Both the position numbers and the translations under genes were made by a program. Shown here piece by piece: positions 3,633 to 61,223 of a stretch of DNA of 64,000 bases (positions within the stretch are counted from its first letter, which is position 1; every line of letters starts with the position of its first letter). Origin of the DNA: a virus. The stretch lies in the IMG/VR virus record IMGVR_UViG_3300050821_004765, positions 1 to 64,000 of that record. One strand, written 5' to 3'. The notes beneath the pieces are model-generated. The model had not been told where the DNA came from. It did not search any database and saw nothing but the letters and a program-made list of their open reading frames with translations.

Positions 3633-4708
3633 TGACGTGCTGCCTTCGGATCTGCAAGCCATTCGACATCATGAATGCTACAAATTTGGATGTCATCACG
3701 TTCAGTGAACGATTCGCCCCATTCACTACTGGGTCGGCCAATTTCGCTATTAGCCTGCACTCGATCTCGAATAGAGCAAAAGCGGTCGCCAGCGCTCATG
3801 AATTCGCACTTGCCGGTTTTGTAACAAATTGGCTTAAACAGGTTGGCAATTTCATCGAACTGCCACTGTGCTGGATGCATTTCTTGCCAGTATGGCATTG
3901 TTTGGTATATCTGATGCTGACCATACTCGCGAATGGCCTTGATAATCTCCACCCAAACTAGCCGCCATTCGAACTGGGCTTGAGTGCACAAACGTAGTCC
4001 TGCGTGGTCAATAAGATGGCGCAATGACGTGGTGTAGTTGAGCTGCGTGAGCACGGAAGTAGGCGCCAGTCCGCGGGCATCTTCAGCAGGCATTCCACTG
4101 TTGACGAGATTGTTATAGGCGTGCCCAATGGTTTTGACTGTTGCATCCCACTCCCGTCGCCATATCTGCTGGGGTTTCGCTTGCTCTTGCGCATACTTAT
4201 CAACTAAACGTACACGTTCATAATTTTCTGATTCATCTTGAAGTGATTGCAAATTCAAATTACCCAATCCACCAGGGAACAGCTCGCCAGCACACTTGGC
4301 AACCCAGTCTTTCCATGGTAATGTCCCTGCCAGGCTTGGCGGCAAGGCAACGGGCATGGTTTCTTTTACTGCGAATCGCATGGACTCTTGAGCATAGCAA
4401 GCTGTACGCTGACGTACCATTTGGTGGGTGAATCCCCGCGTGACTCCCGTAATACGGAAATGGAAGTGCACAAATTCCAAAGGAGCAAGCAATACGTTTT
4501 TGCGAACGTCGGCAAGGAAAAATCGTCGTTCGTCGTCTGTGATTTCAGCCAGGGACGAATGAAACCGTCCCTGATAAGTGTGGGCAGCGGCAGCAATGGT
4601 GCCCAATGGATCAGGTGTGCAGCTAAGAAGTTGGACTTTGGGGCCTTCATTGGTCTGCTCCTCAGCTGCAAACATGGCGGGGTCTACCCACTTTTGCACT
4701 TCATTCAT
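3629..4708 (-). CDS. thyX: ThyX-like flavin-dependent thymidylate synthase
   Basis: PLEFVHFHFRITGVTRGFTHQMVRQRTACYAQESMRF (ThyX motif, with RQR for RHR), EDARGLAP, RLCTQAQFEW; start moved to MNEVQK at 4708. Confidence 0.9.
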   Translation of the reverse strand: MNEVQKWVDPAMFAAEEQTNEGPKVQLLSCTPDPLGTIAAAAHTYQGRFHSSLAEITDDERRFFLADVRKNVLLAPLEFVHFHFRITGVTRGFTHQMVRQRTACYAQESMRFAVKETMPVALPPSLAGTLPWKDWVAKCAGELFPGGLGNLNLQSLQDESENYERVRLVDKYAQEQAKPQQIWRREWDATVKTIGHAYNNLVNSGMPAEDARGLAPTSVLTQLNYTTSLRHLIDHAGLRLCTQAQFEWRLVWVEIIKAIREYGQHQIYQTMPYWQEMHPAQWQFDEIANLFKPICYKTGKCEFMSAGDRFCSIRDRVQANSEIGRPSSEWGESFTERDDIQICSIHDVEWLADPKAARQ

Positions 4709-5024
4709 CGCTGGCCTCCTGGGGCTCTGGATCAATATCGACTGGGCCTGTGTACATTGCCTCAATGTTGAGACCTGTCAGGTACTGGTATTCTTTGCCA
4801 ATAAGTTCATTGACAGGAATGATGAAGTATGGACTACCTTCATCTGGCGTTACTAACTGTGGTACAATACCAATTTTTTCAAGAGACTTGATAATTGGCT
4901 CATGCGCTGGCTTGGCATTCAGCTTGTCCAAGAACTTGCCAATGCCAGATACTGCACCATTCAAGTCTGGTGTTGGGCCAGACGCTTTCGATCCCACGTC
5001 CAGTCGTCTCTTTGCCTCGCCCAT
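4701..5024 (-). CDS. Hypothetical protein
   Basis: 107-aa coupled ORF. Confidence 0.6.
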   Translation of the reverse strand: MGEAKRRLDVGSKASGPTPDLNGAVSGIGKFLDKLNAKPAHEPIIKSLEKIGIVPQLVTPDEGSPYFIIPVNELIGKEYQYLTGLNIEAMYTGPVDIDPEPQEASDE

Positions 5025-5371
5025 TAGCTGCCTTCCCAGTTTCTGTCATATTTCACGTGGCAACTCCTGCATCTTGGTTCATAGCTATCCATTTCCCACT
5101 CGTCACTTTCATGGATTTGCGACCAATCATGTGCTTGATCTCCACAGTCAACACAGTCGTGCTCTTTAGCTTTGCCCTTTTGACGTTCAATTCTACTGTG
5201 AATTGATCGTTTTGATATAGATTTGCCAGCCCAGTTGTGACTTTCCTCTCCTTGTTTAGGAGCAGTATGCCTTTTGCATGTACAACCGTCTAAGCAAATA
5301 TCAAGACGCCCAATAGCATGACGACCACAGGTACAATCAGGTTCGCATTTTCTTCCGATATAATTTGCCAT
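5024..5371 (-). CDS. HNH-like endonuclease with N-terminal CxxxCxCxRH repeats
   Basis: CVDC...W...SYEPRCRSCHVKYD; two CxxxCTCxRH repeats. Confidence 0.7.
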   Translation of the reverse strand: MANYIGRKCEPDCTCGRHAIGRLDICLDGCTCKRHTAPKQGEESHNWAGKSISKRSIHSRIERQKGKAKEHDCVDCGDQAHDWSQIHESDEWEMDSYEPRCRSCHVKYDRNWEGS

Positions 5372-7707
5372 TAGTCAATTACCACTACATGCATAGATTT
5401 AACTTGAATACTTGTACCAAATCCTTCACGCTTTTTGCCTGCTGCAACAATTGCGTCTTTACCTATTTCAAGGTCTTCAATGGCCTGTTGAAACTTAGGA
5501 AAAGACCATCGATTAAATCTTAGGTACACTTCTTCATCAAATTCGTCACGGCATTTAATAGTTGCAGATTTAAGAAGGTGAGGGTCTTTCATTTCAGAAA
5601 GAATCTCTTCAACGCTCTTGCCACTTCTGGCGCGCTCATCTTCCACATAGTCCTTATACTCAACGGTATAGGGAATACCGGCCCAGACGACCGCGTGCTC
5701 GCCCTCCCGAGGGAGTGTATCAGACCTGTGGGTCGGCGTCGGTAGGTAGTCGGGGTTATCCTTCTTACAGGCCTTCCGCAATTCCTTCATTTTCGCCGAC
5801 ATGATATTTAGGCCAAATGGATCTGATCCTTCAGCAAAATCTCGGATCTTTTCCATGGTCTTTGGCCCAATACGCGACACATTGATTAGGTCGTCCCAGT
5901 CGGGTTCGCGATCCCAATAGCTGTTATCAAGGTAGTCCAGTATGTTATCTGCGGTTTTGTCGCCAATGCCCGGAACTTGCAAGAATCCTGCAATGATGCC
6001 GTTATCGGCAGCTTCCCAATTCTTCCCAGATAGCGTTATGCTCGGCGGGGCAATCTTAAGCCCATGCCGCATCGCATCCTTCAGCGATCTAGTGCGTTTG
6101 TATACTGTCTTGTCATCATTGCCATTGCCGGTTTTCCGTAGTGCTGCGGCATAGAATGCGGTCTGGTGATGTTGTTTTATCCACATCTGCCAAAACGCTA
6201 GCATCGAGTAGGAAATACAGTGGGCAATGTTGAATGAGTACGTTGCGGAGGTCGCCATGAAGCGCCAAATTCTGCGGGCCTGTTCCTTTGTACACCCATG
6301 CTCCTTAATCGCATTATCTTCAAATTGCTGATACATGGACTCGAACTGGGCTTCGCCAAGCTTTTGTGAAATGATCTGTCGGATAGCGTGTACTTTTGTC
6401 ATTGGGAACCCGCCAAGCTCCCGGATAATACTTAGCACTTGCTCCTGGTAAATAATCTGTCCGTAAGTGAACTCAGTATGTTTATCAACAATGGGGTGGT
6501 AATTTTCAATTGTTTTGCGCCCATGTTTAATGTCAACATATTGGGCCGCCATACCAGAGAACAACGGACCTGGCCGCGATAGCGCATTGATATCCGCCAG
6601 ATGTTGAAAGTGATCTGGGACCACGTCCCGACAAACGAGACGAGTGGCACGCCCTTCAAATTGGAAAATTCCAACAACGTCATTCTTGCGGAAGGCTGCC
6701 AAAGTACGCTTATCATCAAGCGGCACACGGTATAAGTCTTCAAGGTCCATTCCTATGATGTCGAGGGCTTGCCCGATCATGCCCATAGTTGACAACCCCA
6801 GAATATCCTGTTTCAGGAAGCCCAGACTAGCGCTATCTTTTTTGTCGTATGCAATAACTTCGGCTTGTCGACCTGCAACTTCCCGGGTGTAAACTGCACA
6901 AAAGTCTGTGATTGGTCGATTAGAAATAACAAGCCCAGCGGCGTGTACGCCCATTCCACGGTAATTGCCTTCGAGCCTAACAGCATTTGTAAGTTGTGGA
7001 TGTTTATCGAGGACCGCCATCGCCTTGGGAAACATAGCAAAGGTATCCTCAAGGCTATCATCGGCTCTTGAGTCGCCGCCAGACCGCTCGATGATGAGAT
7101 TCTTAACAACTTCGCAATCCCACTTTGGAATATGGTAGACTCGTGCCACGTCATCTATCGAGTTCTTTCCCTTGTATTTCGTGAAGTTGCCAATATGGCC
7201 AACGTTTGCCACTCCGTACCTGGAACCAGCATAAGCGAAAACTTCATGCCGCCGATCATCGGAGAAATCCAGGTCAATATCTGGTAATTCATCGCGCGTT
7301 GGATCAATGAAGCGCTCGAATAGCATATGTTCATGCTGAAGTGGGTCGACTTCAGTAATTCGTAATAGGTAACACACCAATGAAGCTGCAGCAGATCCGC
7401 GTGCTGGCCCCACCGGAATTTTATGGTCTTTTGCCCATCTGACGATGTCACTTGTGACCAAGAAGTAGTCCACAAAGCCTTTGCTGATGATAAGATTGAG
7501 TTCATGCTCAACTCTCGCAATGTAATCACCCCGCCTGGTGTGCAGAAATGTGTTGCCGGTCCGTTGTAACCGAAAGGTCCAGCCGAAATTTAGCCACTCC
7601 CGAATAAGGGCAATAGCTTCCGGTGAAGATTTATCATAGCGATCTGCGAGTACACGCCCAGATGCTTCATCGACTTTAATGCCTTGGGCTTGCTCTATGC
7701 TAGTCAT
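5371..7707 (-). CDS. dnaE: DnaE-like DNA polymerase III alpha, polymerase-core part of a split gene
   Basis: GPARGSAAASLV, FERF, PDIDLD, HAAG, KQDILGL, GIFQFE, YQEQ and YSFN motifs; ATG 7707 overlaps the HNH stop. Confidence 0.92.
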   Translation of the reverse strand: MTSIEQAQGIKVDEASGRVLADRYDKSSPEAIALIREWLNFGWTFRLQRTGNTFLHTRRGDYIARVEHELNLIISKGFVDYFLVTSDIVRWAKDHKIPVGPARGSAAASLVCYLLRITEVDPLQHEHMLFERFIDPTRDELPDIDLDFSDDRRHEVFAYAGSRYGVANVGHIGNFTKYKGKNSIDDVARVYHIPKWDCEVVKNLIIERSGGDSRADDSLEDTFAMFPKAMAVLDKHPQLTNAVRLEGNYRGMGVHAAGLVISNRPITDFCAVYTREVAGRQAEVIAYDKKDSASLGFLKQDILGLSTMGMIGQALDIIGMDLEDLYRVPLDDKRTLAAFRKNDVVGIFQFEGRATRLVCRDVVPDHFQHLADINALSRPGPLFSGMAAQYVDIKHGRKTIENYHPIVDKHTEFTYGQIIYQEQVLSIIRELGGFPMTKVHAIRQIISQKLGEAQFESMYQQFEDNAIKEHGCTKEQARRIWRFMATSATYSFNIAHCISYSMLAFWQMWIKQHHQTAFYAAALRKTGNGNDDKTVYKRTRSLKDAMRHGLKIAPPSITLSGKNWEAADNGIIAGFLQVPGIGDKTADNILDYLDNSYWDREPDWDDLINVSRIGPKTMEKIRDFAEGSDPFGLNIMSAKMKELRKACKKDNPDYLPTPTHRSDTLPREGEHAVVWAGIPYTVEYKDYVEDERARSGKSVEEILSEMKDPHLLKSATIKCRDEFDEEVYLRFNRWSFPKFQQAIEDLEIGKDAIVAAGKKREGFGTSIQVKSMHVVVID

Positions 7708-8192
7708 ACCCACGCCCAAGATATACCAACAATAGCTGCCCACATAGTGGCGCGGTTTACTCCAAATTCATAGGCAAGATGTGATGCAGACTCTCCATTG
7801 TTATATCTCTCTCTTGCCAATAAGACTATTTCTTTTGTTAATTTTGCATTGGGTCTATCTGATCCAAGAGGAGTTTTGCCATTCCTTTTTGCATCTTCTT
7901 GATTCTCTAATGCTGTTCCCCACATTAGATTGGATGCTGCATTATTATCTCTGTTGTCATCTATGTGACGGACTTGGAGTCCATTAGGTCGTTCACCGTG
8001 AAATGTTCTACAAATTGCAACATGTATTGGTACAGTATCTTTTACACAAGTAGTACCATCTGGTCGCAAACCTACCCACCAATATCTGGTAGCTTTATTC
8101 CATATCGGAACTAATGGCTTACCACGAACTCCAAATATAGTGCCATCTTCCATGGCCATATGGCGATATCCAGGGATCTTAACTATATCCAT
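7704..8192 (-). mobile_element. HNH homing endonuclease gene between the two dnaE parts
   Basis: HVAICRTFHG...VRHIDDNRDNNAASNLMWGT..EN HNH motif plus C-terminal NAKLT..HTH. Confidence 0.88.
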
Positions 8193-9103
8193 GGCACATG
8201 GTCCCTTTCGCCAATAGGATATTTGATTGTCTCAACTTGTTCTAGGTGAGCGTCACATCTGTCGGCAATACGACCAGTATTTAGTAGCGCTTCTTGTGCG
8301 CCATCTTCTGATAAGCCTGTACCAACAAGTTGCTTGTAGACTTCGTCATCGGAAGTGGGAATTGATAAGAGTATGTCATATTCCCAGCTGGCCTCAACCG
8401 CACTAACAGTAGAACCACGATGTGCAGCGTGCAATATTTTTTGCATTTCGTTGTCGGCAGGATTGACATAATGGCAGTCGCTAGTAGCAACGAGCGGAAT
8501 TCCCGTTTCAGATGCAACGATTTCGAATGCCGGGTTAAGTACGCGAGTTCTATCAAGTCCTTCAAATCTTTGGCACTCCAGATAAAATCTATCACCAAAT
8601 ATGTTCTTGTACCATTCAGCGAGGTTAATGGTATTGCGTAATTGCTTGGTGGTATATCCCCCTCGCTTCTCTCCAAGGCTTTTTCCGCCAAGGAGCGTAC
8701 ACGAGATTGCACTATCCGCGCAGCCTGATAATACGATGAGCCCATCGCTAAATTCCTCTAGTCTATGCATATGCACAGTAGGCCAACGATAAAAGTCTTT
8801 CCAGCTTTGGGTTACCAAACGATTGAGATTCCGTAAACCATCTTGATTCATTGCAATAATGGTCTGGTGAAACTTACGCGACTCTTTCGGCGGGGCAACA
8901 TAGGCCTCTACGCCAAATAATGGTTTAATGTTGTGTTTCTTACATGCTTTTTCTAATTGCACGTGGCTAGAAAGATTGCCATGCTCGGTAAGCGCCATGG
9001 CTTTCATGCCATACTCTGCACAAAATTGAACATGCTCTTCCGGTAATTGAAATCCGTCGCCGTACGAGTGGGTGCTGTGGTGGTGAAGGGACACATATTC
9101 CAT
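8183..9103 (-). CDS. dnaE: DnaE N-terminal PHP domain as a separate gene
   Basis: LHHHSTHSYGDG, ALTEHG, GVEAY, LSGC, ATSDCHY and NTGRIADRC PHP motifs. Confidence 0.92.
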   Translation of the reverse strand: MEYVSLHHHSTHSYGDGFQLPEEHVQFCAEYGMKAMALTEHGNLSSHVQLEKACKKHNIKPLFGVEAYVAPPKESRKFHQTIIAMNQDGLRNLNRLVTQSWKDFYRWPTVHMHRLEEFSDGLIVLSGCADSAISCTLLGGKSLGEKRGGYTTKQLRNTINLAEWYKNIFGDRFYLECQRFEGLDRTRVLNPAFEIVASETGIPLVATSDCHYVNPADNEMQKILHAAHRGSTVSAVEASWEYDILLSIPTSDDEVYKQLVGTGLSEDGAQEALLNTGRIADRCDAHLEQVETIKYPIGERDHVPWI

Positions 9104-15296: not shown

Positions 15297-16025
15297 TCAG
15301 AAGCTAGACTTGCTAGCCCCAACCTTGTTGAGTCGACCTTCACGGCCCTTGAAACGTCCGCGCGTGGACTCAGCCGGTGCCTCTTCGGTATCGCCTTCTA
15401 CAGCGCCTTCGCCTTCAGCCTTGGCTGTTGCCTTAGCTTCACGGGCAGCTTCACGCTGCTCGCGGGCTGCTTCGCGCTGGTCGCGCTTCTGCTGGGCGGT
15501 CTCTTCCGCTTCCTGGCGCTTCTTGTCACGCTCTTCCAGCTTGCGCTGCCGGTCAGCTTCCTTAGCCAGCCGGTCAGCTTCACGCTGCTCACGCTTGGCG
15601 CTCTGGTTGAATTCGCGCTCGGCACGAAGCCATTCCCGCACGCCCTTCTCAGATTCGCGCTGCTCAGCCTTCTGCTGACGCTCGGCATCACGCTGAGCCT
15701 TGGCTGCAGCCTTCGCCTCGTTGACCTCTCGGTTGGCCTCTTCGCGTTCTGCAGTACGTGCCTTACGCTCGCGGTCAGCTTCAGTCAGCCCCTCTTCGTC
15801 ACGCGCGCTGTTACGCCATGCCTGCCACTCGCTGTGGTTGGTCAGAACTGCCTGCACATGCCCTGCATCAATGGTTACGCCTGCCTTTTCGCCAGCGTAT
15901 CGCGCGAGAGAAACGGCTGCAGGGCCAGGGTTCTCAACGGAATAACGCTTGCGGTCGGTCTCATTGGCCATGATTGGTAAATCCTCTTTGCTAGTAGTTT
16001 GGGTCTTCCGCGATCTACGCGACAT
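15297..16025 (-). CDS. HSEWQ-motif protein with long charged coiled coil
   Basis: E/R/K/A-rich helix; paralogous motif in 32975-33319; own promoter. Confidence 0.75.
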   Translation of the reverse strand: MSRRSRKTQTTSKEDLPIMANETDRKRYSVENPGPAAVSLARYAGEKAGVTIDAGHVQAVLTNHSEWQAWRNSARDEEGLTEADRERKARTAEREEANREVNEAKAAAKAQRDAERQQKAEQRESEKGVREWLRAEREFNQSAKREQREADRLAKEADRQRKLEERDKKRQEAEETAQQKRDQREAAREQREAAREAKATAKAEGEGAVEGDTEEAPAESTRGRFKGREGRLNKVGASKSSF

Positions 16026-26550: not shown

Positions 26551-26719
26551 GGTGTGTAGCTATGCACCAATCTTGGTGTGGGTCATTATCGCAGATTGGG
26601 CCAGAATCATTGATGTGAATATGCGGGACTCTTACTTCACAACGTTTACAATCTGTTGCGGCCTCTACTTTTGGGCCATTAACAAATTCATATTGAAATT
26701 TAGGCATCGTGCTCCACAT
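26519..26719 (-). CDS. Small Cys/His-rich protein
   Basis: CKRC..H.H...C...H..C. Confidence 0.5.
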   Translation of the reverse strand: MWSTMPKFQYEFVNGPKVEAATDCKRCEVRVPHIHINDSGPICDNDPHQDWCIATHHEIYRGPSNA

Positions 26720-27581
26720 TGAATTTCTCAGTGGCTATCATGTAGCCTGTGATATAGTTGACAGGCTGGCGGCTGCTGACAGACTCACAAACCACGAACC
26801 CCGCGGAGGGGTCAATGACTTGCCAAAGGCACTTGTCTGTATTGTAGGTTAGCAAGAGCGCCTCAGTGCCTTGGATAATGTCATCCAGTTCGCCTTTGCC
26901 TAGCATAGGGCATTTGTAGCTTTCATGTGGCGGCCCACCGTCAACCAACTCCTGGGCGGGGTAATAAATTGTCACGAGGCCTGCTTTCTGGTCTTGTTGT
27001 AGCTCATAAAGAACTGTATGAAGGCGGTATGCTAAGCGCTTTAGTTTGTCCTTGCGGGTTTGCTCTTGGCGGTAGGTGTTAGTTGCTGGTGGCGTGTAGC
27101 TATTTGCTAGCTTTTGCTGGTGCACTTTATTGTGATGTTCGTGACGATCCTTGAGAAATTGCCGCCGAATTGGGCTGATAGCGTCGCTGCCTTCTACTAC
27201 AAAACGTTGACCTAACCCTTCACCCAACCTACAGCGATAATTAGAGAAATGCACCAAGCACAGGTTGGCCCAAACTTGGGTACCAGAGGTAGCAGTGGGT
27301 GGCGCTACCGGTGGAGGGATCTTGGCAAATGCATATGCCAAGACGTGCTTGCCAGTAAACAAACAGTAGTCACAGTTAGGTAGCGCAGGAACTTGTAGCT
27401 CGCTGTGGTCTTTTTTGCTGTAGCTACTTGGGTCTGTGCTTTTGCGTTCTAGTGACATTGGTGACCGTACACAGACATGATGGATACTGCTGCGACTATG
27501 CTTAGTCCGAATACCATAACCATTATCATGTACCACTTTAAAAACGGACTCACATGTACCTCCTGTAGAAGTAGCCCACAC
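26700..27581 (-). CDS. Hypothetical protein with CDYC...CLVH zinc-like motif
   Basis: Long ORF; true start possibly MSLERK. Confidence 0.55.
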   Translation of the reverse strand: MWATSTGGTCESVFKVVHDNGYGIRTKHSRSSIHHVCVRSPMSLERKSTDPSSYSKKDHSELQVPALPNCDYCLFTGKHVLAYAFAKIPPPVAPPTATSGTQVWANLCLVHFSNYRCRLGEGLGQRFVVEGSDAISPIRRQFLKDRHEHHNKVHQQKLANSYTPPATNTYRQEQTRKDKLKRLAYRLHTVLYELQQDQKAGLVTIYYPAQELVDGGPPHESYKCPMLGKGELDDIIQGTEALLLTYNTDKCLWQVIDPSAGFVVCESVSSRQPVNYITGYMIATEKFNVEHDA

Positions 27582-27613: not shown

Positions 27614-28543
27614 CTAGTGGCGATGGCGTCCATTGGTGTGCCCCACAGTCTTTGCTTTTTGGGTGAGTTGTTTAGTTGCTATCTTGCTGGTTGTTTTGTT
27701 AGCGGCCAGCGGTACTGCTGTTGTGATAGGGGCCACCTTCTTGCTGTAGGCGCTATCAATGACCGGCTTAAGCAGCTTGTTGAGACCGTTAGTAATCTGT
27801 GCCGGCAGGAACTTTTGCAATGCGCTAACCAACGGCAATGTTGGGGTGGGCACCATGTAGGTTGTGGTAACCCCGCCAAGTTTGTTGGTACTGGTTGTGA
27901 TATCTGCCTTTGGAATTTGGCTGATGTCTTGTGTGATGACGGTCGTGTGCACAGTAGCCGCACCAATAAGCGCGTTGGCAACCGCAAGTAGATAGCCAGG
28001 GCTCAGCGGGTTATTTGGGAAGTCTGCTAAGCCGTCATACTGCTTGACATAGAGGCTAAGGTTGTAGGGGGTCACCGGTGTAGCGAGCGGTGTGTAGTTG
28101 AGCACTGGGATAAACTTACCAATGAATGGCGTGAGCATACCAGTACCGCGCTCTTCATCTTCGATTTCGACAAACTGAACTTGGCTTTTGGGAATGCCAG
28201 CCTTCATGTCATTGACCATAATCTGGTCTGTAACCAATGTGCCCTCGCTGATGCTGAGAATAGTTAGGGTTTTGTATGTAGCGTTCGGGTTCCCGACGTT
28301 AGCGCTAAGCCACGCCGATTGTAGCGCTGTCACGTCGGCTACGCCGGTCTGTACGCTCGGCCCTAGGGTAGTCGTCCCCTCGAACGGCGCCAAGCTCGCG
28401 TCGTACGCCGCACGCTCGGTAATACCGGGTTGGTAGGCGTAATTGAAGAAGTCACCAGTTGCTACGCCGTAAGTAGTTGGCTGCGCACTAGCGCCCAGCA
28501 CGAGAATTGTACTGACCAGTGTTTGGGTAATTGGATCTGCCAT
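27614..28543 (-). CDS. PE-PPE domain (cutinase-like serine hydrolase fold) secreted protein
   Basis: SISEG nucleophile elbow, QYDGLADFPNNPL...AVANALIG..TVH, TTTYMVPTPTLPL, LKPVIDSAY. Confidence 0.82.
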   Translation of the reverse strand: MADPITQTLVSTILVLGASAQPTTYGVATGDFFNYAYQPGITERAAYDASLAPFEGTTTLGPSVQTGVADVTALQSAWLSANVGNPNATYKTLTILSISEGTLVTDQIMVNDMKAGIPKSQVQFVEIEDEERGTGMLTPFIGKFIPVLNYTPLATPVTPYNLSLYVKQYDGLADFPNNPLSPGYLLAVANALIGAATVHTTVITQDISQIPKADITTSTNKLGGVTTTYMVPTPTLPLVSALQKFLPAQITNGLNKLLKPVIDSAYSKKVAPITTAVPLAANKTTSKIATKQLTQKAKTVGHTNGRHRH

Positions 28544-30214: not shown

Positions 30215-30601
30215 TTAGTAGCGCACCACCTTATTCATATCATCGTCTGCTTTGTCGATCACCTTTGCACTTTCTGGGCAAAGGTATGTGGTTGCGTAAT
30301 ACCCCGCCTCAGCGGCTTCGTGTGGGCTATTGTATTTGCTAAGCAGCAACGTTGCTACCATATTCGCGCCAGCGTCGGTAGGGTTGTTTTGCAGAATGGC
30401 GCAAACCTGCGTGCCGATAATGTAGTCTTTGCTGCTTTGCTCCGCGGTATATGGGTTAGTTGGCGGTTCTGCAGTAAGTGGTGTCTGGGTATCTGTGCTG
30501 GTTGGGTCTGGGTGTGCAGTGGCGGGGTACATAGCCGCTGCTACAGCCGTGGCTGCCAGCGCTAGCAAGGTTTTGGCTGCAGTTTTGGTGGGCATTACCA
30601 T
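30215..30601 (-). CDS. Secreted DUF732-like protein
   Basis: Signal peptide (LLALAATAVAAAMYPATAHP), GTQVCAIL...YLCP two-Cys pattern. Confidence 0.6.
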   Translation of the reverse strand: MVMPTKTAAKTLLALAATAVAAAMYPATAHPDPTSTDTQTPLTAEPPTNPYTAEQSSKDYIIGTQVCAILQNNPTDAGANMVATLLLSKYNSPHEAAEAGYYATTYLCPESAKVIDKADDDMNKVVRY

Positions 30602-31407
30602 TTTTGTGTGCCTCCATGGAGTATGTTTTTGAGTTGTTCGTTGGTAAGTGCATTCGCTTTGGAGCGAATGCGCGCCACTTCTTCGAGTGTACGAAATGCC
30701 GGTGCTTTATCCTTTCGGTTCTTGGCATTTGGCAATACGTGCTTAACGGGCGCTTGTTTAGCATCTGGGTTGTCTGGGTTATTCAAGTTGATTTGGTCTT
30801 CTGGGCGCTTTGCTTCATATTCAGCAATAGCTTTTTCTACTTCTGGTATGGGATTAAACGCTAGGTTTGCAGCTGGGTGTAGCTGCTGTTCTGATTTCTT
30901 TTGCTGCTCACGTGCGAGCTGTTTTGCGCGCAATCTGAGGATTCTTTTTGCTTCTGGGCTTACTATTTGGTCTAGCCCAACGCTAGCATCCATGAGTGCT
31001 GCATGCCCTAAGCGCGCGGTCGAGCGTGCGTATGCGACTGCTTCTTTATGGCTGAGTCCAGTTGCCCGCATCTTGCGGTAGTACACAACGTGCTGTTTGA
31101 GTTTTGGATCTAACCCCGCCTGGAGTATGCGGTTGTACTCGTGACCTCTGGGGCGCAGGTGCGGTGGAAGCTTGGTGGGGGTGGCCTCTGTGATTGGCTG
31201 GGAGACTTTTTTGTCGCGCATATTTTGCGCGCGTTTGGCTTGGGCTCGCTGTAATTGTCGCTTACGGTGCGCTGCGGATGATGCTTTTGAACGGCGGTAA
31301 TGTGCCAAAGCGTCTTTGGAAAGTGGGTCTAACCCCAGCTCTCGCATACCTAAAAACTCGTCGCGCGTCTGGCCTGGCAGCCTTGGCGGTAGCTTTTCGT
31401 AGCCCAT
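30595..31407 (-). CDS. Basic hypothetical protein
   Basis: 270-aa K/R-rich ORF downstream of promoter 31475. Confidence 0.7.
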   Translation of the reverse strand: MGYEKLPPRLPGQTRDEFLGMRELGLDPLSKDALAHYRRSKASSAAHRKRQLQRAQAKRAQNMRDKKVSQPITEATPTKLPPHLRPRGHEYNRILQAGLDPKLKQHVVYYRKMRATGLSHKEAVAYARSTARLGHAALMDASVGLDQIVSPEAKRILRLRAKQLAREQQKKSEQQLHPAANLAFNPIPEVEKAIAEYEAKRPEDQINLNNPDNPDAKQAPVKHVLPNAKNRKDKAPAFRTLEEVARIRSKANALTNEQLKNILHGGTQKW

Positions 31408-31474
31408 TTTACTGCCCCCTAACGGTTTGAAGAGTTGGAGTCGGGTGGCCTCGCGGTTTTTCGCTGAGGTCTTA

Positions 31475-31503
31475 AGTATACCTTGGCATAACCGAAAAGT
31501 AAA
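31475..31503 (-). promoter_or_regulatory. Promoter TTTACT-N17-TATACT
   Basis: Minus strand TTTACT tttcggttatgccaagg TATACT. Confidence 0.7.
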
Positions 31504-31569
31504 TATCTAAGGGTTTGCAGAGGTGAATAGGAGTGATACTAGAGACTGCACTAGGTTATTCGGCGAAAA

Positions 31570-31805
31570 GGTAACCATGGTTACCGACGAGCGAACCCAT
31601 GGTAACCGCTGGTCGGAGGGGGTATAGAGCTAGAGGTAACCAGTTAACTAGCGCACGACTAGTCTCCCTATAGGTATATATACGGGAGCCCTATATAACC
31701 CCTATTTTCTCGCTGATGCGTATTCGTTTTTATTTGGTAAAAGCTAACTTTAAGATATAAAATATAGGTTGATCAGGGAAAATAGAGGTTACCAAAGGGG
31801 TAACC
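31570..31805. repeat. Six GGT(A/T)ACC repeats around an AT-rich tract; candidate origin or packaging region
   Basis: Copies at 31570, 31579, 31601, 31635, 31787, 31799; 16-bp palindrome GGTAACCATGGTTACC. Confidence 0.6.
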
Positions 31806-32073
31806 AGTTAGGGGGTGATGGTTATCTTATTGATGTATAATATTAACGCTTGCGTTAATTATGAGTTGCAGCTCTGAATTTGTATTTTTAACAGTTTACC
31901 ACTTTCAAACGCTGCAACGCGCGTATAAGTCAGCTTATATTGTTAGGTGGCCTAGCAAAATTTCCGGCCTCCAGCACCATAACTCACAGGTGGCCTTAGC
32001 GCTAATATTTGGGTAAGTTACGAGTTGCAAGTTATCAAAAAGTTACGTTACTCTTTTCATGTTTCCGTAACGC

Positions 32074-32114
32074 AAAAAACCGGGTCGCCCCACAAGTCAG
32101 TGAAGCGCCCGGTT
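32074..32114 (-). terminator. Intrinsic terminator ending the early leftward unit
   Basis: CCGGGCGCTTCAC-loop-GTGGGGCGACCCGG followed by T6. Confidence 0.8.
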
Positions 32115-32190
32115 CAGCAGGTGGCCTAGAAGTAGTAAGCAAACAGGAACGTCAACGCCCCACCCACCATTCCCATACCAATAGTAAACA

Positions 32191-32475
32191 TCAGCGGTCC
32201 ATTCGCTTTCCTTCATTCAAGTTAAACTCCACTAGCGCTTCGGCCATACACCAAGCGCACACCAGAGAGTTATCATCATCGGGCGTCAGCAACACCGCGG
32301 GGGATTCTCCGGGAATACCACAACGCTCACAAACACCAGTTTCGGTAAACGGTACCGTACTAGCAATAAGTAGTTCTTCTACCATTCCGCGGTCTTCAGC
32401 CACGGTAGCATCGCGTAACGTCGTCACCAACGTTACCGCAAAATCTAGGTAGCTACTATCCCAAGGTTCAGTCAC
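32191..32475 (-). CDS. Small zinc-binding protein (CERC..CAWC), lacks His and Gln
   Basis: GAGGGA RBS, GTG start. Confidence 0.6.
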   Translation of the reverse strand: MTEPWDSSYLDFAVTLVTTLRDATVAEDRGMVEELLIASTVPFTETGVCERCGIPGESPAVLLTPDDDNSLVCAWCMAEALVEFNLNEGKRMDR

Positions 32476-32520
32476 GATATTCCCTCATTTCAGTTTCGTA
32501 GGCAAATTTAAATGCAGGAA

Positions 32521-32544
32521 TAAGGGCGACCAAGGTCGCCCCTA
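32521..32544 (-). terminator. Hairpin with CUUG loop (weak terminator or processing site)
   Basis: UAGGGGCGAC CUUG GUCGCCCUUA. Confidence 0.5.
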
Positions 32545-32556
32545 TCACCAGATATA

Positions 32557-32661
32557 TCAACGCGCGGCCTTTCGAATAGCCCAAGCTTCAGCTTTCGCAA
32601 ATAACGGCGGTAGTAGCGCTACCAGCAACAACACAGTCGCCGCGCTTACCCAGAACATCAT
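32557..32661 (-). CDS. 34-aa membrane peptide (not in ORF track)
   Basis: MMFWVSAATVLLLVALLPPLFAKAEAWAIRKAAR. Confidence 0.5.
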   Translation of the reverse strand: MMFWVSAATVLLLVALLPPLFAKAEAWAIRKAAR

Positions 32662-32666
32662 TTCGG

Positions 32667-32870
32667 TTACGCCACTTTCGCAACTACAGCGAGCGCGTAC
32701 TCGATTTCAGCAAGTAACGCCGGCATCGTTCGGTAGATACTCACACCACGGCGTACCGCCCGCAAATACGCATCACCTTTCGGGCCGCGTTTCACAGCAG
32801 GCACCTTATACTTATCCGCATACGTTTCCGCGCGGGTAAGCACAGCATTATACATCTCAAGACTCGTCAT
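32667..32870 (-). CDS. Hypothetical early protein, lacks His and Gln
   Basis: RBS AGGAAAGG and start context AGGTCTCTGAAATG. Confidence 0.7.
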   Translation of the reverse strand: MTSLEMYNAVLTRAETYADKYKVPAVKRGPKGDAYLRAVRRGVSIYRTMPALLAEIEYALAVVAKVA

Positions 32871-32974
32871 TTCAGAGACCTTTCCTAGGCACAGGAAAGA
32901 CGTACCGATTAGTACGCCATACCCGAACCGGGGAAACTTATTCCACCCGGTTCGAGTAAAGCGCGCTAAGCGGT

Positions 32975-33319
32975 TCAGACTTCGACCGGAATACCGAGCG
33001 ACTCCAGCAGGGCAATCGCGTCGGCCTTCTTCTTCTCAGTCCGCTCCGCGTTCTTCTCGGTCCGCTTCGAGGCAGTAACGGCGTTAACCGCGGCCTTCAG
33101 TTCCGGCGAACCGTTCTTCCAGGACTGGAACTCGGAGTGGTACTTAACGACGGCGGCGATCTGATCGGCATCGAGTCCCAGTTCCGGGAAACGCTTCTGG
33201 AAGTAAAGCGTTTCCAGAGCGACCGTACCAGTCACCTTCGCTTCGCTCGCTTCGCCGACAACGCTTTCCAGCTCGGCGATCACATCGGCGTTAGCGGAAA
33301 CGATTTCAATAGCAGACAT
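32975..33319 (-). CDS. First gene of the early unit; HSEFQ-motif protein
   Basis: Start context AGGTCTTTGAAATG; paralog of 15297-16025. Confidence 0.8.
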   Translation of the reverse strand: MSAIEIVSANADVIAELESVVGEASEAKVTGTVALETLYFQKRFPELGLDADQIAAVVKYHSEFQSWKNGSPELKAAVNAVTASKRTEKNAERTEKKKADAIALLESLGIPVEV

Positions 33320-33375
33320 TTCAAAGACCTCTCAGTTCGTCCGTTCGCTCGGATCGGCGAATCGGTACGTCTACG

Positions 33376-33410
33376 ACGCTACTGGCCCGGCGAGAGAAAG
33401 TCTAGTCCGG
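33376..33410 (-). promoter_or_regulatory. Promoter TAGACT-N17-TAGCGT
   Basis: CCGGAC TAGACT ttctctcgccgggccag TAGCGT. Confidence 0.7.
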
Positions 33411-33717
33411 AGCGAGATCGTTACCTAATCGTTACCGAAGTCGATACAGGCCTCTCATTCGCCCGTACACGAACGCAAGCCCGTCTCCGGTCCCGTCTAT
33501 CGCGACGCGCGGTATCGTCCGCGACACGAGCGTACAGCGGCCCGCACGAACGGGCCTACCGACCGCGCGACGGGTCGCCGGAGCGGGCGTTCGAACGTAC
33601 GTACGAAAAGTAAGGTAACCCTAACCCCTAGGGAGGGCGGTGCAGCTGTTCCGTGCTCGCGAAATTTTTGCATGCACGTATAAAAACAACTTAGCCTAGC
33701 TAACTGTTGTAAGCGCG

Positions 33718-33729
33718 TATACTACTCAC
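33718..33729 (+). promoter_or_regulatory. -10 box TATACT positioned for a leaderless transcript of 33730
   Basis: TATACT 6 nt before the ATG; no RBS; no clear -35. Confidence 0.5.
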
Positions 33730-34311
33730 ATGACGCTCCCCTGGGATCACCAAGACGAGTACCCAAGTCCACTTGGGTCTGGCCCCACGGCTATCAACTA
33801 TGGGTACCCATTCCAAGTGGTCGGCCCAACTACACCAGAGCGTGCAGCCGAAGCACGCGCCACAGGCATTCCCAATCCATCACCACCCGTCGAGTACCAA
33901 CCGCCTCGGTCGCCAACCTACGACCCAACCTATGGCGGACTCCCACCCGACAAAAATACCAATTTCAACCCCAAGATGCCCAGGGACCCATTCAACACTC
34001 TACACGCCAGAGAGTCAGAAACAGAGTTCTCTTGGGGTGAGGGCATGTACCCAGACCCCATCCTGGACTACAGTGGCAGAGGTTCACGCTCCAGATTCCC
34101 GGTCGCGGACCCAGATGTCAGAGACCAGCTCCGCAACCTTGCTGCGCTACGGCGTACTGACCTCAGCAGTCCCTTCGCAGTCGCAGACCCGTACGTTGCT
34201 GGTAACCCAGACCGCTATGGTGCGCAGCCGCCGTTGGTGCGTAAGCGCGGGCGTTACAAGCGTGGCCACATTGATATCCCCAAGCCCCCACGTATGCACA
34301 GAGAGTGGTGA
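33730..34311 (+). CDS. Pro-rich hypothetical protein
   Basis: First rightward ORF. Confidence 0.6.
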   Translation: MTLPWDHQDEYPSPLGSGPTAINYGYPFQVVGPTTPERAAEARATGIPNPSPPVEYQPPRSPTYDPTYGGLPPDKNTNFNPKMPRDPFNTLHARESETEFSWGEGMYPDPILDYSGRGSRSRFPVADPDVRDQLRNLAALRRTDLSSPFAVADPYVAGNPDRYGAQPPLVRKRGRYKRGHIDIPKPPRMHREW

Positions 34312-34320
34312 CGCACGCAA

Positions 34321-35583
34321 ATGGCACCGCAAAACCAACAGGTCACCCCGGCATTTGTCAGCACAGAGGCACGCGAAGCGCACACCAAAGCCGTTGTACA
34401 GGCGGGGTTGATGTCACGCAATGACCAGCTACGCTTAGGCTTTCTTAAACCGGAGGACCTGGACGACGAAGAGATTGCGCATGGCACTGCCCGTGAGCCA
34501 GATGAAGACCCTGACATCCCGCTCAGCAAGCACATTGCGCGCCGGCAACGGCGCACGGGCAAGAACCGCAAGCGCACTGCATTGGGCACGCACAGCTACT
34601 ACATGGCGCCCGACCAAGCTATGCCGCTCGACGTGTTTACTGCCATGCAACAGGAGCACCAGAGGAGACTGGACAACTACCTGCGCAGCAATATCAACGA
34701 GGCATTGACTACAATTGTTGAGGTTATGCAGGACCAGACTGCAGAGCCGCGCGACCGCATGGATGCAGCGAAGTACATATTTGAGCGCGTGGCGGGGAAG
34801 ACACCTGACAAGGTCGAGGTTAAAGTTGATAAGGCACCCTGGGAAGAGGTGCTTACTGGTATTGCTAACGTTAGCCGTAGCATATCCCAGAAACTCAACA
34901 ACGCCACCAACCAAGACCCCAATGACCCAGACAATATCATGGATGTGGAATCCATACCAGAAGAAGATTTACCACAGCCGCGCATGTATGGGTACATCCA
35001 GACTACTACAGACTTTGACCCCACAAACCCCTACCAGCCACAGCCACAAACAGAAGACAACCAAACTGCTAACTTTGATATTAACCAGCCGCAAGAGGCT
35101 GGAGCTATGCCGATTTACCAGCCGGCAGGACAAGAGCTAGCTGTCCCTGACCACGACGAACAAGCTACGGTGCCGAGTAGCCAGTTTGCGCCACCACACC
35201 CCAGGGCCAATAGCTTTGCTGCGCCAGACTTTAGCAACCCGCGGAATACCTCCAGCACGATGCCAAACACCTACGACCACCCGTTATACCAGGCACAAGA
35301 GGTGTACGCTGCGCCGAGCGAACCCTTGAGTGGCTACCTGCGCGAGCAGCAGGCACGAGCTGAAGAACTAGCAGTAGAGCGGAAAGCACAGAAAGCCAAA
35401 CAAAAGGACACACAGGATAACCGGAAAGCTGCAAGTAAAGCACGCTTGCAAGCTAAGCAACGCCGGATCGTGCGGCGCACCATGGGCATGGATGCCATGG
35501 ATAACAGCGAAATCCAGATGACAGAAACGCCATTAGGTGATACAGACAGTGAAGAATACCAGATTAAGTTCAGCGCGGACTAG
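34321..35583 (+). CDS. Possible terminase small subunit with long disordered tail
   Basis: Helical core (EALTTIVEVM...RMDAAKYIFERVAGK) and position upstream of terL. Confidence 0.5.
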   Translation: MAPQNQQVTPAFVSTEAREAHTKAVVQAGLMSRNDQLRLGFLKPEDLDDEEIAHGTAREPDEDPDIPLSKHIARRQRRTGKNRKRTALGTHSYYMAPDQAMPLDVFTAMQQEHQRRLDNYLRSNINEALTTIVEVMQDQTAEPRDRMDAAKYIFERVAGKTPDKVEVKVDKAPWEEVLTGIANVSRSISQKLNNATNQDPNDPDNIMDVESIPEEDLPQPRMYGYIQTTTDFDPTNPYQPQPQTEDNQTANFDINQPQEAGAMPIYQPAGQELAVPDHDEQATVPSSQFAPPHPRANSFAAPDFSNPRNTSSTMPNTYDHPLYQAQEVYAAPSEPLSGYLREQQARAEELAVERKAQKAKQKDTQDNRKAASKARLQAKQRRIVRRTMGMDAMDNSEIQMTETPLGDTDSEEYQIKFSAD

Positions 35584-58310: not shown

Positions 58311-59293
58311 CCGGGCCAACTAACCCAGACACTGGACAGGCGAACCCTAACACAAGCGGGAACCCGCCTGGGCCCGGACCTTACCAGCCTATTGAGCAAC
58401 AAACAACGGTAGCTTCTGCACTAAACTTGCGGCCATTCCAATATCAGATTGGCGGCTTAGTATTTGGTAGACATACCAATATGGTAGTTAGCAAAGTTGA
58501 TATTCAAACTTATAACGTCAATGCTGAAGACTTCCAGATCATTAGGACAAATGAAAGATCATTCGGTGTTGATACTCTGTCACCTGGCAGTTTGGTATTC
58601 ACGCTCGGCGCTTTGGATAATCGACCTATTAACTTTGCTGCCGCAATAGACTATGACTTACTCCCATTGATGCTTGGTTACAAATCCCAAGCTATGCTAT
58701 CCGATTTCCTTATGGAGTGGAAGGCCAATGATGTATTCCCTAACTGGGGTGAAACTAAACCAATTTACTTTGCTGACCGAGATGGCGTCACCAAGCGTAT
58801 TTATGGACGTCCAGGTAAAGTCACATACTCGCGGTCTACCACCAAGAACGCTTTTTGGAATGTGCAGGCCGAGTATAGACGTGCAGATACATACGTCTAC
58901 AGCGATGTAGAATATTTCGTTGGCCCAATCTATCCAGGGCAAGCTCCGGTATTTGCATCTAGGCAGGATGGCGATGGCCCCGCATGGATGCGTATTCTTT
59001 TCACGGGGCCATTCAACCACCCTGTGATGACATATGGAGAAAACGTTCTCGAGGTTGGTGTACAAGAAGCGGATGGATCTGTTCTTGAAGTTAACAGCTA
59101 TCCCTGGGAGCGTCGTGTCATTGATAGTAATGGCATCAACTGGCGATCACAGTTGCTAGGGGAGACAGTATATTTGGATCAATTACAATTCCCGGTCGGC
59201 ACGACTTGGCCGATCAGCTGGGTACAGGAAGGCACAGCTAACTCTGATACCGCAGCATACTTCTGTTGGCGCGAATCATACAATATGATGTGA
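58307..59293 (+). CDS. Minor tail protein (Dit-like)
   Basis: Follows the tape measure; RIYGRP, C-terminal WRESY. Confidence 0.7.
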   Translation: MTGPTNPDTGQANPNTSGNPPGPGPYQPIEQQTTVASALNLRPFQYQIGGLVFGRHTNMVVSKVDIQTYNVNAEDFQIIRTNERSFGVDTLSPGSLVFTLGALDNRPINFAAAIDYDLLPLMLGYKSQAMLSDFLMEWKANDVFPNWGETKPIYFADRDGVTKRIYGRPGKVTYSRSTTKNAFWNVQAEYRRADTYVYSDVEYFVGPIYPGQAPVFASRQDGDGPAWMRILFTGPFNHPVMTYGENVLEVGVQEADGSVLEVNSYPWERRVIDSNGINWRSQLLGETVYLDQLQFPVGTTWPISWVQEGTANSDTAAYFCWRESYNMM

Positions 59294-59294
59294 T

Positions 59295-61223
59295 ATGACT
59301 ATTCAAATTGTGCAAGAGAAAGTTATTGGGCAATCCAATAATACTGGAGCGATTAGCTTTAGTTTTGCTAGTGCGGTTACCCTTGGCAATACTGTAGTAG
59401 TTGTAGTTGCTTGTTCCAATAGCGACGCATACCCAATGGCAGCAAGCAACTGCTTCCTCGGCTACGAGCTAGTACCCGGTACATTTGCCGTTTGGGATCC
59501 GGGTAATAGTGCCGGTATCAATGAAGCTGTTGATGAAGGCATCTTTGCTACTTGCTGGGTGCTACCAAATTGCCCCGCCGGTAATGGTATCACATTGAGC
59601 ATTGCCAATATGGAATATATCAACGAGATAGTTGCCTATGAAATTAGTGGACTAGGCAACTCACCAATCGTTGACCAGTTTATTTTCAATTCTGGTGCTA
59701 CTGGCAATATTAACTCTGGTGAAACCCAAGGATCTACATTTGCACCGGAGATTGCCATTGGCGTTGGTATGGCGCTCAACGGCGGCGCACAAGCGCCGAG
59801 TGGCGACACAACTTGGACTGCAGTTGAGGCGTCTGGAGAGACGTACGCGCGAATTGGCTACACCGTAGCTACATCTACTGCGACTAAGTTCTCTTGGGTT
59901 GAGACCATTAGCAGCGGCCCTTGGGTTTCCGGTATCGTTAGCCTGTACGCTGCACCCCTAACTGGTACCGTACAGCCTGCGAGTATTCCTACTGGCGATG
60001 AAGGTAAGTTTCGTTTCATTGTGGAGGAAGCAGTAACTGGTAAGATTCTTACGCGGGATCTCAATGTCACCAAGCCTAAGCTGCTACGCGCATTAAGCGG
60101 CCCGTGTAAAATTGAGTTCGATGTTGACTACCGCGATCTATCTGCCATTGGTATTGGGTTCAATCCGTGGGGGCACTGGATTCATGTGGAAAAAGAAATC
60201 TATGGCGAACGTAAGATTTGGTGCAGTGGTATTGTACAGCCCGGTAAGGTAGACAAGAAGACCGGTGTCTTGCACCTACAAGCTCAGGGGTTCGCTGGAT
60301 ATCCAAAAGGTATTCCGTGGCTAGAGAATTGGAACCCCCTTACCGTCGACCCGTTCCAAGTTGTTCAAAAGATTTGGCATCATCTACAGAGTTATAGCAA
60401 TGGCAATCTTGGGGTAACAGTTTACCCGTCTATTGCCGGACTCGAAATGCTACCGGGTTATGCGTTCGATGGCAATATCATGAACCTGGACTTCTTTGCT
60501 GAGTATATTCGTGCAGAAGACAAGAACGACTGTGGCGATTACATCAATACTCTTGCACAAAATATTCCTTTTGACTATGTCGAATATAGTAATTGGAATG
60601 ATGACTACTCGGCAATCCAGAAGTCAATATTCCTTGGCTATCCTAAGGCTGGTGTACAGCAAGACTACTTATCATTTGTCATCAATGAAAATGTTATGGA
60701 GGCACTACCATATGTGGAAGCTCAAATTGACTGGGCTAGTGATGTTATTATTGACGGTTGGTTCCCCGGCAGTGAGTACAGCGCAACCTTCACTAATCCC
60801 CTCCCCAACAGATATCGTCGCGTGCTTACCGAAGATGAAGCTAGAATCAACAGCAACGAAATCGCAGCAGCTTGGGCTCAGCGTAAGTTGTCAAAGCGAC
60901 AAACCCCTGCCTACTGGTCCGATATTGTTACCATCTTGGGGCACCCAAATGCCCCATTTGGATCCTACGACGTAGGCGATGATATTTGGGTCACTGGCTA
61001 TATGCCATGGGTCGGTGACGTCAACCAGCTTCATAAGATCCTCGCAATTCAAGTAAATGAAGACCAAGGCACCTGTGAGTTAACGCTCATGGCTGAAGGC
61101 GCATTCAACTATGCGCCGGTATACTATCAGGGTAGCATTAGTGGTTCTACAACTATGGTTGAAAGCGCCACACCAAATGTAACTGTCGCCACTTATGCCG
61201 CACAGATTGGACCGGGCAGTTGA
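59295..61223 (+). CDS. Minor tail/hub protein with extra N-terminal beta-rich domain
   Basis: Position; RALSGP, DVGDDI. Confidence 0.7.
   Translation: MTIQIVQEKVIGQSNNTGAISFSFASAVTLGNTVVVVVACSNSDAYPMAASNCFLGYELVPGTFAVWDPGNSAGINEAVDEGIFATCWVLPNCPAGNGITLSIANMEYINEIVAYEISGLGNSPIVDQFIFNSGATGNINSGETQGSTFAPEIAIGVGMALNGGAQAPSGDTTWTAVEASGETYARIGYTVATSTATKFSWVETISSGPWVSGIVSLYAAPLTGTVQPASIPTGDEGKFRFIVEEAVTGKILTRDLNVTKPKLLRALSGPCKIEFDVDYRDLSAIGIGFNPWGHWIHVEKEIYGERKIWCSGIVQPGKVDKKTGVLHLQAQGFAGYPKGIPWLENWNPLTVDPFQVVQKIWHHLQSYSNGNLGVTVYPSIAGLEMLPGYAFDGNIMNLDFFAEYIRAEDKNDCGDYINTLAQNIPFDYVEYSNWNDDYSAIQKSIFLGYPKAGVQQDYLSFVINENVMEALPYVEAQIDWASDVIIDGWFPGSEYSATFTNPLPNRYRRVLTEDEARINSNEIAAAWAQRKLSKRQTPAYWSDIVTILGHPNAPFGSYDVGDDIWVTGYMPWVGDVNQLHKILAIQVNEDQGTCELTLMAEGAFNYAPVYYQGSISGSTTMVESATPNVTVATYAAQIGPGS

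Follow-up and report, generated by a model that had tools for sequence, protein, structure and literature searches.

The stretch of DNA analysed here (the window) comprises 64,000 nucleotides (nt), positions 1 to 64,000 of the IMG/VR virus record IMGVR_UViG_3300050821_004765, and it carries at 32124–33640 an island in which selection has removed the dinucleotide 5'-TG-3' from one DNA strand at the price of histidine and glutamine in the encoded proteins. The island is a self-contained accessory module in which five small genes stand between a control region and a terminator. Of its two strands the plus strand is purged; the minus strand, which is the coding strand of the module, is correspondingly CA-free apart from the few sites described below.

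An earlier reading of this DNA (the original prediction) had reported six TG on the plus strand of the island amid plentiful CA, and our recount finds six at exactly the same positions (32513, 33126, 33138, 33162, 33198 and 33383) where 74.2 are expected from base composition (observed/expected ratio, o/e, 0.08), while CA occurs 118 times on the same strand (o/e 1.02). Its finer claims, that 32515–33125 has no TG at all on this strand, that 33341–33640 has one TG and seven CA, and that TG returns at 33641, were reproduced as well. The dinucleotides enriched in the island are CG (1.52-fold), TT (1.40-fold) and TC (1.30-fold). No dinucleotide is commoner in the genome than TG (one per 13.2 nt), and yet the genome's three longest TG gaps (613, 391 and 258 nt) all lie inside the island; no other dinucleotide has a gap longer than 265 nt anywhere in the genome. 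The identical island sequence is present in contigs from three soil DNA runs belonging to three studies, and it is therefore not an assembly artefact.

The constraint reaches into the proteins. Four of the six TG correspond on the coding strand to three Gln codons and one His codon of the first gene of the module (gene 1, 32975–33319), and the remaining cassette proteins have neither residue, both as had been noted previously. His plus Gln account for 4 of the 347 cassette residues, against 6.8% genome-wide, which bears out the earlier proposal that a strand-specific bias shapes amino acid content.

Codon-preserving null models, which the original prediction had named among the checks to be made, give the same answer. 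When the five cassette proteins were held fixed and their codons redrawn from genome usage (2000 draws), 50.6 ± 5.5 CA were expected on the coding strand (minimum 33) and only 5 are observed, 4 of which are the unavoidable Gln and His codons of gene 1. Shuffling of codon order, which retains the codons themselves, still predicts 23.2 ± 3.3 CA (minimum 13) against the same 5. In gene 1, 38 codons end in C and 29 begin with A, but the number of C|A codon junctions is zero where 9.3 are expected. Because the count falls below both null models and the codon junctions avoid CA too, the constraint acts on the nucleotide string rather than on codons or tRNAs. The cassette retains Leu, Val and Arg by use of CTC/CTT/CTA, GTC/GTT and CGC/CGT codons, which TG>CG or CA>CG changes would not yield in one step, so the genes have been recoded under selection. 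The depletion is thus confirmed as real, strand-specific, selection-driven and amino-acid-shaping.

Relatives of the module and the purged strand

Searches with the terminase and with neighbouring genes gave a comparison set of about 100 loci. Some of them (G001 and G002, both complete, L095, L098, L100, L109 and others) have neither the small gene nor an island. In another group a purged module lies directly left of a shared operator and promoter and consists of iterons and hairpins, the box TTAGGGTTGCCTTACC, a gene 1 homologue and a terminator. At least six lineages (at least five besides this phage) carry the module with the ban, four of them with TG banned on both strands and two (the window and locus L146) on one strand. 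In the four both-free lineages (L016, L022, L024 and L020) TG and CA are both nearly gone over 640–760 bp (335 bp in the truncated L020), and their genes contain three or four each of TG and CA where 16–33 are expected. The TG and CA that survive there sit in start codons, in Trp-Gln codons (GTGGCAG-type words) and in a −35-like TTGCCT. Junction avoidance is significant in all lineages. The ban is inherited together with the module while the proteins diverge to only ~20–35% identity between lineages, and the pattern as a whole speaks for selection of long standing that is bound to the module, and against mutation bias or a foreign origin.

Relative to the gene, the purged strand differs between the two asymmetric lineages. 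In the window the module is inverted compared with its relatives, its box and gene 1 being on the minus strand, and the coding strand is purged of CA and normal in TG. In L146 (and L139), which encodes a homologue 68% identical to the L016 protein, the asymmetry is reversed: the coding strand of the gene has 3 TG against 23.4 expected and 22 CA against 20.7 expected, that is, TG abounds on the template strand and CA in the mRNA, and the edges of the island run from just after the start codon to the terminator. What the window and L146 have in common is that the sense strand of the terminase arm is TG-free in spite of the opposite direction of their small genes, and the four both-free lineages are compatible with such a terminase-sense-strand rule. 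L024 in addition has a TG-free, CA-rich stretch (4496–4800) to the left of its both-free part, with a skew flip at 4496 and the same left-to-right layout as the window. As an alternative to a strand rule, there could be two separable constraints, each of which was relaxed once.

Gene 1 (32975–33319, minus strand) encodes a 114-amino-acid protein that is helical throughout and combines an HSEFQSW motif with a charged coiled-coil tail, as seen in alignment with its relatives and with a paralogue in the same genome; its coding strand has 4 CA against 17.8 expected and normal TG. It fits an unnamed family of small helical HSExQW proteins, in which an N-terminal helical domain ending in a [HYF]xEWQ-like motif is followed by a charged coiled coil. 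The family profile has 25 cluster representatives, all metagenomic, and recovers gene 1 at E 7.6e-32; most of these representatives have just 2 His plus Gln and no more than 2 Met, Cys or Trp. The AlphaFold2 model of gene 1 (predicted local distance difference test score, pLDDT, 76) matched no fold in the PDB, a search for close homologues returned only gene 1 itself, and of the cassette proteins none matched Pfam, the sole PHROG match being a weak one of gene 1 to phrog_3123 (E 0.0018). TG and CA were scored in the lineages named above, out of a family with some 20 further members, among them P0018 (encoded on a 73,891-bp contig), and searches of IMG/VR and species genomes with the family alignments and P0018 gave nothing further.

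The paralogue (15297–16025, minus strand, HSEWQAW motif) serves as an internal control, with 51 CA against 47.3 and 42 TG against 33.1 expected. It is 242 amino acids long with a long Glu/Arg/Gln/Lys coil, has its own promoter, shares the word CCGGACTAGAC with the region upstream of the cassette, and has homologues (33–36% identity) in the island-less G001 and G002.

Two other sequence patterns were noted in these loci. To the left of the module stand iteron arrays (8–9 copies, ATCAGAAC- or ATCGGAAC-like) and then 5–7 short hairpins of the form TTCGGC-N3-4-GCCGAA, at L024:4300–4800, L016:3760–4000, L022:40–200 and L146:500–790. Strand-specific TC-free stretches (0–2 TC in 300–640 nt, with plentiful GA) occur within the small terminase gene or a short way upstream of it and run across gene borders, at L004:885–1288, L014:864–1317, L016:7034–7675 (the same as L015:6405–7046 and L019:1752–2393), L013:4058–4365, L068:2333–2639 and, in the window, 35251–35468; part of this pattern may reflect a general TC-poor coding bias. 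A TC gap in G001 reflects such a general TC-poor coding bias, and a T-poor stretch in G005 (1431–2450) was rejected as an analogue of the island, being a low-complexity gene rich in Lys, Glu and Ala.

Possible causes of the ban

As to the cause of the ban, the reading we put forward as the best guess is a tentative one: the module may have escaped from a thymine-directed activity that marks or reads DNA in TG context and acts strand by strand. The selective agent would read a T followed by a G on a single strand, and the only documented biology with such two-letter specificity is thymine-directed DNA chemistry (hypermodification at TG or TC, and T-dioxygenases acting at NTG or NTC). The mark could come from an unrecognised phage enzyme or from one of the host that works on single strands when these are exposed; the module would have to remain free of it, and, unmarked, would stay usable while the rest of the genome is marked or attacked.

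The original prediction had pointed to context-specific thymidine hypermodification in other phages, and hypermodification in TG context is indeed documented. The Pbunavirus phages F8 and 14-1 resist restriction at TG-containing sites, and a sugar-derived T replaces about a quarter of their T (PMC12191111). In Acinetobacter phage SH-Ab 15599 almost every TG carries alpha-dapT, and its authors state that the marks of previously described hypermodified phages sit mostly at TG or TC (PMC13458397). Among phage T-dioxygenases, 5mYOX176 prefers NTG and 5mYOX97 prefers NTC (PMC13229309). In the present phage the control region, which is likely untranscribed, is also TG-poor, and this points to DNA rather than RNA as what is read. 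We count as support the strand-specific TC-free stretches in or near the small terminase genes of the clade, TC being the second hypermodification context. A ThyX-like gene (3629–4765) is found here and in the TG-modified F8 and is absent from the island-less G001 and G002, a co-occurrence that is a lead only.

A number of observations weigh against this reading. The window and L146 are opposite relative to transcription, and therefore no rule stated for the template strand, the non-template strand or the mRNA fits both; a same-genomic-strand rule does fit, but it is drawn from only two asymmetric lineages, with a chance of 1 in 2. Module-less relatives show no purge beside the same promoter, so the ban is tied to the module and not to genomic position. 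No TET/JBP-type T-dioxygenase (PF12851) was matched at E ≤ 1 in the phage's own genome or in five relatives, an absence that is uninformative because F8, a proven TG-modifier, has no PF12851 match either (and the authors describing the 5mYOX enzymes report many divergent ones that lack this annotation). The ParB-like activator PF02195 likewise had no match at E ≤ 1 in this genome, and Pfam and PHROG scans of about 100 open reading frames (ORFs) found no dUMP hydroxymethylase, 5-hydroxymethyl-deoxyuridine (5-hmdU) DNA kinase or aGPT-Pplase-type transferase. Modification-related matches were limited to the ThyX-like protein and two methyltransferase-like proteins, and the genes for both of the latter are also present in island-less relatives. 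Finally, neither of the TG-modified phages F8 and SH-Ab 15599 possesses an island free of TG or CA (in SH-Ab 15599 no 500-bp stretch has fewer than 18 TG, against a mean of 34), so a TG mark alone does not demand a blank cassette, and the link between mark and island is one that we infer. The ADP-ribosyltransferases DarT1 and DarT2 were considered as single-strand readers and rejected, as their published motifs (TNTC, relaxed G) do not match TG.

If the constraint were instead on RNA, transcripts lacking CA and/or UG would outlast a two-letter endoribonuclease, be it a host toxin, a collateral RNase or a phage shut-off RNase. The ban does span the transcription unit and stops near the terminator, the few sites tolerated serve required residues (Trp-Gln, start codon), as one would expect if each site carried a graded cost, and the both-free state of four lineages would suit a unit with sense and antisense transcripts. 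However, the TG-free DNA extends ~275 nt beyond the best promoter candidate on its upstream side, and, since the window bans CA and L146 bans UG in homologous mRNAs, two nucleases would be required. Immunity to a MazF-like enzyme, which had been suggested earlier, does not hold generally, as CA is at a normal level in the L146 mRNA. No RNase specific for CA or UG is known to us, enzymes of the MazF type recognise at least 3 nt, and neither the Pfam and PHROG scans nor the fold search found an RNase-like protein in the cassette. We regard RNA-level immunity as unlikely.

The explanation first offered for the island was that a bulky TG-context thymine modification in virion DNA blocks host RNA polymerase on the template strand, so that the first-expressed genes avoid TG there. 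This fits the window taken by itself, with template TG absent, coding TG normal and both low in the control region, and modification of this kind is real in other phages. It does not fit L146, whose homologue keeps 22 TG on the template strand and is purged on the coding strand, nor the left-arm replication genes of the present genome, whose template strand has plenty of TG. Neither of the TG-modified phages SH-Ab 15599 and F8 has a blank cassette, SH-Ab 15599 shows a canonical early/late programme according to its authors (PMC13458397), and no modifying enzyme was found here in the scans above. A polymerase-blocking mark on the template strand is contradicted by L146 and by the two modified control phages, and we regard it as unlikely.

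Control of replication could also place a ban on one strand, either as a zone without primer sites or as target-free, long-lived single-stranded DNA beside an origin. The same genomic strand is purged in both asymmetric lineages despite opposite gene direction, the module lies between repeats or iterons and the late promoter in all lineages, and the phage encodes a PrimPol-D5 primase-helicase; TG is moreover the core of many primase start sites (CTG for E. coli DnaG, GTG for the pRN1 primase). On the other hand, module-less relatives share the primase and the promoter and have no purge, the island edges track the gene unit (in L146, from start codon to terminator), and the repeats are only origin-like by sequence, with two lineages informative on the strand rule. 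We think replication control quite unlikely.

The suggestion that first-injected DNA avoids orientation-dependent restriction sites also found no support in either of its parts. All NTG and TGN words are gone on one strand while CA is normal, and GATC, TCGCGA and TTCGAA are present. The nearest cultured terminases are those of Mycobacterium phages (PBI1, Hawkeye and Fowlmouth), which are circularly permuted headful packagers; the 97-bp terminal repeat of the record looks like an assembly overlap.

A start-codon ban, in which the lack of ATG, GTG, TTG and CTG in any frame prevents stray leaderless starts in an actinobacterial host, has in its favour that NTG covers all start codons, that the late ATG of this phage is leaderless (7 nt after its −10 element) and that the L146 purge opens right after the start codon; but internal near-cognate starts are as a rule selected against much too weakly to cost proteins their Met, Cys, His and Gln, neither the paralogue nor the rest of the genome is under such a ban, and we consider it very unlikely. 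Mutation bias, in the form of local hypermutation that turns TG and CA into CG without selection, has almost no probability, since, although CG is enriched 1.5–2.1-fold in the islands, the Leu, Val and Arg codons are not its one-step products, needed TG and CA (Trp-Gln, start codons, the −35-like TTGCCT) are kept at conserved places, and the ban has sharp edges and persists across lineages at 20–35% protein identity.

Parts of the module and its genomic setting

The unit had been described as running from a promoter to a terminator. A strong intrinsic terminator does stand at its end (32074–32115, minus strand; a hairpin of −30.2 kcal/mol, with z −3.4 relative to shuffled sequences and a U6 tract after it), and CA returns ~15 nt ahead of its stem; the promoter, TAGACT-17-TAGCGT near 33370–33405 on the minus strand, is a candidate recognised from its sequence alone. 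It lies in the control region (33320–33640, minus strand), which is poor in both TG and CA and also contains the palindrome TTCGAACGTACGTACGAA (33590–33607) and a conserved box, TTAGGGTTACCTTAC on the minus strand (plus-strand coordinates 33610–33626). The box is common to L022 and L024, where it precedes the small gene and has the opposite strand relative to the terminase. No convincing inverted repeats that could account for the inversion were found around the module.

Downstream of gene 1 on the minus strand, gene 2 (32667–32870) encodes a 67-residue basic protein without His or Gln and without a family match (0 CA against 9.6 expected). Genes 3 (32557–32661; 0 CA against 5.0 expected) and 4 (32468–32584, TTG start; 1 CA against 4.6 expected) would encode hydrophobic peptides of 34 and 38 residues, and both calls are uncertain. 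Gene 5 (32191–32475; 0 CA against 13.3 expected) encodes 94 residues without His or Gln and with two CxxC pairs that look zinc-ribbon-like; it matched nothing in Pfam or PHROG.

The left flank (31180–32123) has repeats that look origin-like, with AGGTGGCCTAG at 31945 and 32119 and GGTWACC palindromes. The segment 31894–32291, which includes the terminator and the AGGTGGCCTAG repeats, is covered in one soil DNA run at double the depth of the sequence on either side and is the main part present in a third DNA run and in a soil metatranscriptome, where just two read-size contigs (31900–32195) were found; it may be shared with a commoner strain or represent an abundant small RNA. No similarity to 31800–32400 was seen in any locus examined. 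Immediately left of the repeats is a gene (30595–31407, minus strand) for a 270-residue protein rich in Lys, Arg, Gln and His, whose plus strand is TG-rich and CA-poor (50 and 13 per 500 bp), a mirror image of the island; CC is absent for 265 nt at 30711–30976.

To the right, outside the island, is the control region of the structural arm (33641–33729, plus strand), with the palindromic operator TTAGCCTAGCTAA (33691–33703), a −10 element TATACT (33718–33723) and the leaderless ATG (33730) of the first structural-arm gene, a member of the phrog_5460 family. The operator, −10 and ATG lie 70 nt right of the island edge, and the layout of operator, GCGTATACT and ATG recurs in L016, L020, L022, L024 and L146. 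Across 33691–33732 and these five loci the late-arm start has the form TTAGC(C)TAGCTAA, then GCGTATA(C/A)T, with the ATG 6–9 nt on.

The source record, 74,238 bp long with a 97-bp end overlap, is a siphovirus genome organised as two divergent arms. The minus-strand arm (1–33319) encodes a DnaE-like polymerase with a PHP domain, a helicase, an exonuclease, ThyX, the two methyltransferase-like proteins and a PE-PPE LysB-like esterase; the plus-strand arm (33730 onward) encodes terminase, portal, capsid, tape measure and tail proteins, a lysin and a cutinase, and the PrimPol-D5 primase-helicase gene straddles the record ends. The polymerase is apparently split (5371–9103, minus strand) into a PHP-domain gene (8183–9103), an HNH endonuclease (7704–8192) and the polymerase body (5371–7743). 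Identity to Mycobacterium phage Onyinye is 78% for the capsid and 59% for the terminase, and these Onyinye-like proteins, the LysB-type genes and the leaderless late promoter together point to a host among the mycolic-acid actinobacteria. The two esterase-type lysis candidates, the left-arm PE-PPE protein (27614–28543, minus strand) and a cutinase-like protein after the GH25 lysin (L076:5306–6184, which is genome 68805–69683, plus strand), also suggest a host with a mycolic-acid envelope. For a 293-residue protein at 26700–27581 the ESM Atlas yielded nothing usable.

The phage is represented solely by metagenome contigs. Near and distant blastn searches of the region against cultured phages gave zero matches, and searches of IMG/VR with gene 1 and the small terminase found no close loci. 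The cultured terminase or capsid relatives Onyinye, PBI1 and Nocardia phage P3.1 have no islands in the parts examined, and their gene order differs.

Comparison with known systems

The TG-hypermodified phages (F8, 14-1 and SH-Ab 15599) and the enzymes 5mYOX176 and 5mYOX97 resemble the present case in that a T-G word, with TC second, is read on DNA, TG-free and TC-free stretches both being present in this clade. They differ in that none of the pathway enzymes was found here, as far as our scans reached, and in that F8 and SH-Ab 15599 have no island. F8 does have a skew flip resembling the one beside this clade's islands, in an intergenic stretch near its primase genes (58501–60000, L155:8500–10000), with 62 TG and 13 CA per 500 bp followed by 28 TG and 93 CA per 1000 bp.

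The first-step-transfer DNA of phage T5 and the early region of T7 are poor in restriction sites, and the EcoP15I sites of T7 all lie in one orientation. The likeness here is a presumably early-acting stretch free of a word, in T7 in a strand-specific manner, but those words are restriction sites of 5–6 nt, and the present ban concerns a dinucleotide and costs amino acids. mRNAs that lack ACA are immune to MazF, and they too are motif-free yet coding; their motif is at least 3 nt long, however, and not the whole dinucleotide CA, and in the present case the purge extends into DNA that is likely untranscribed and a homologue bans UG instead.

Our literature searches on phages found no description of dinucleotide-free islands. 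One parallel among cultured phages is E. coli phage ECML-117 (a Wifcevirus; L159), in which TG and CA are both ~4-fold depleted at 6750–8500 compared with the rest of the genome, and which has a 278-nt CA-free, TG-rich stretch at 4476–4754. The dinucleotide and the gene-cassette scale are the same, while the phage and its proteins are unrelated and the depletion is weaker; this weaker block in a cultured phage makes the question testable at the bench. It is quite possible, though we would stop short of calling it probable, that unrelated phages keep such TG-erased blank cassettes because an undescribed activity reads T-G on single-stranded nucleic acid, and that in the present clade the blank strand follows the genome (terminase-sense) and not the gene. 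If so, a genome-following blank strand would point to a reader linked to replication or DNA entry rather than to transcription or RNA decay.

A strand-specific dinucleotide ban that costs amino acids and is kept through protein divergence implies a strong selective agent with two-letter specificity. If that agent is a TG-context thymine mark, islands of this type would be a sequence-only indicator of hypermodified phage DNA and would also flag the genes whose function is needed ahead of the mark or in spite of it; a host enzyme in this role would amount to a novel type of defence. In both cases the cassette proteins are prime candidates for first-acting take-over or counter-defence factors. 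Beside the systems above, the present case adds an actinophage-like clade, a clean purge of a single strand that extends across five genes, and a pair of lineages in which the blank strand is independent of gene direction.

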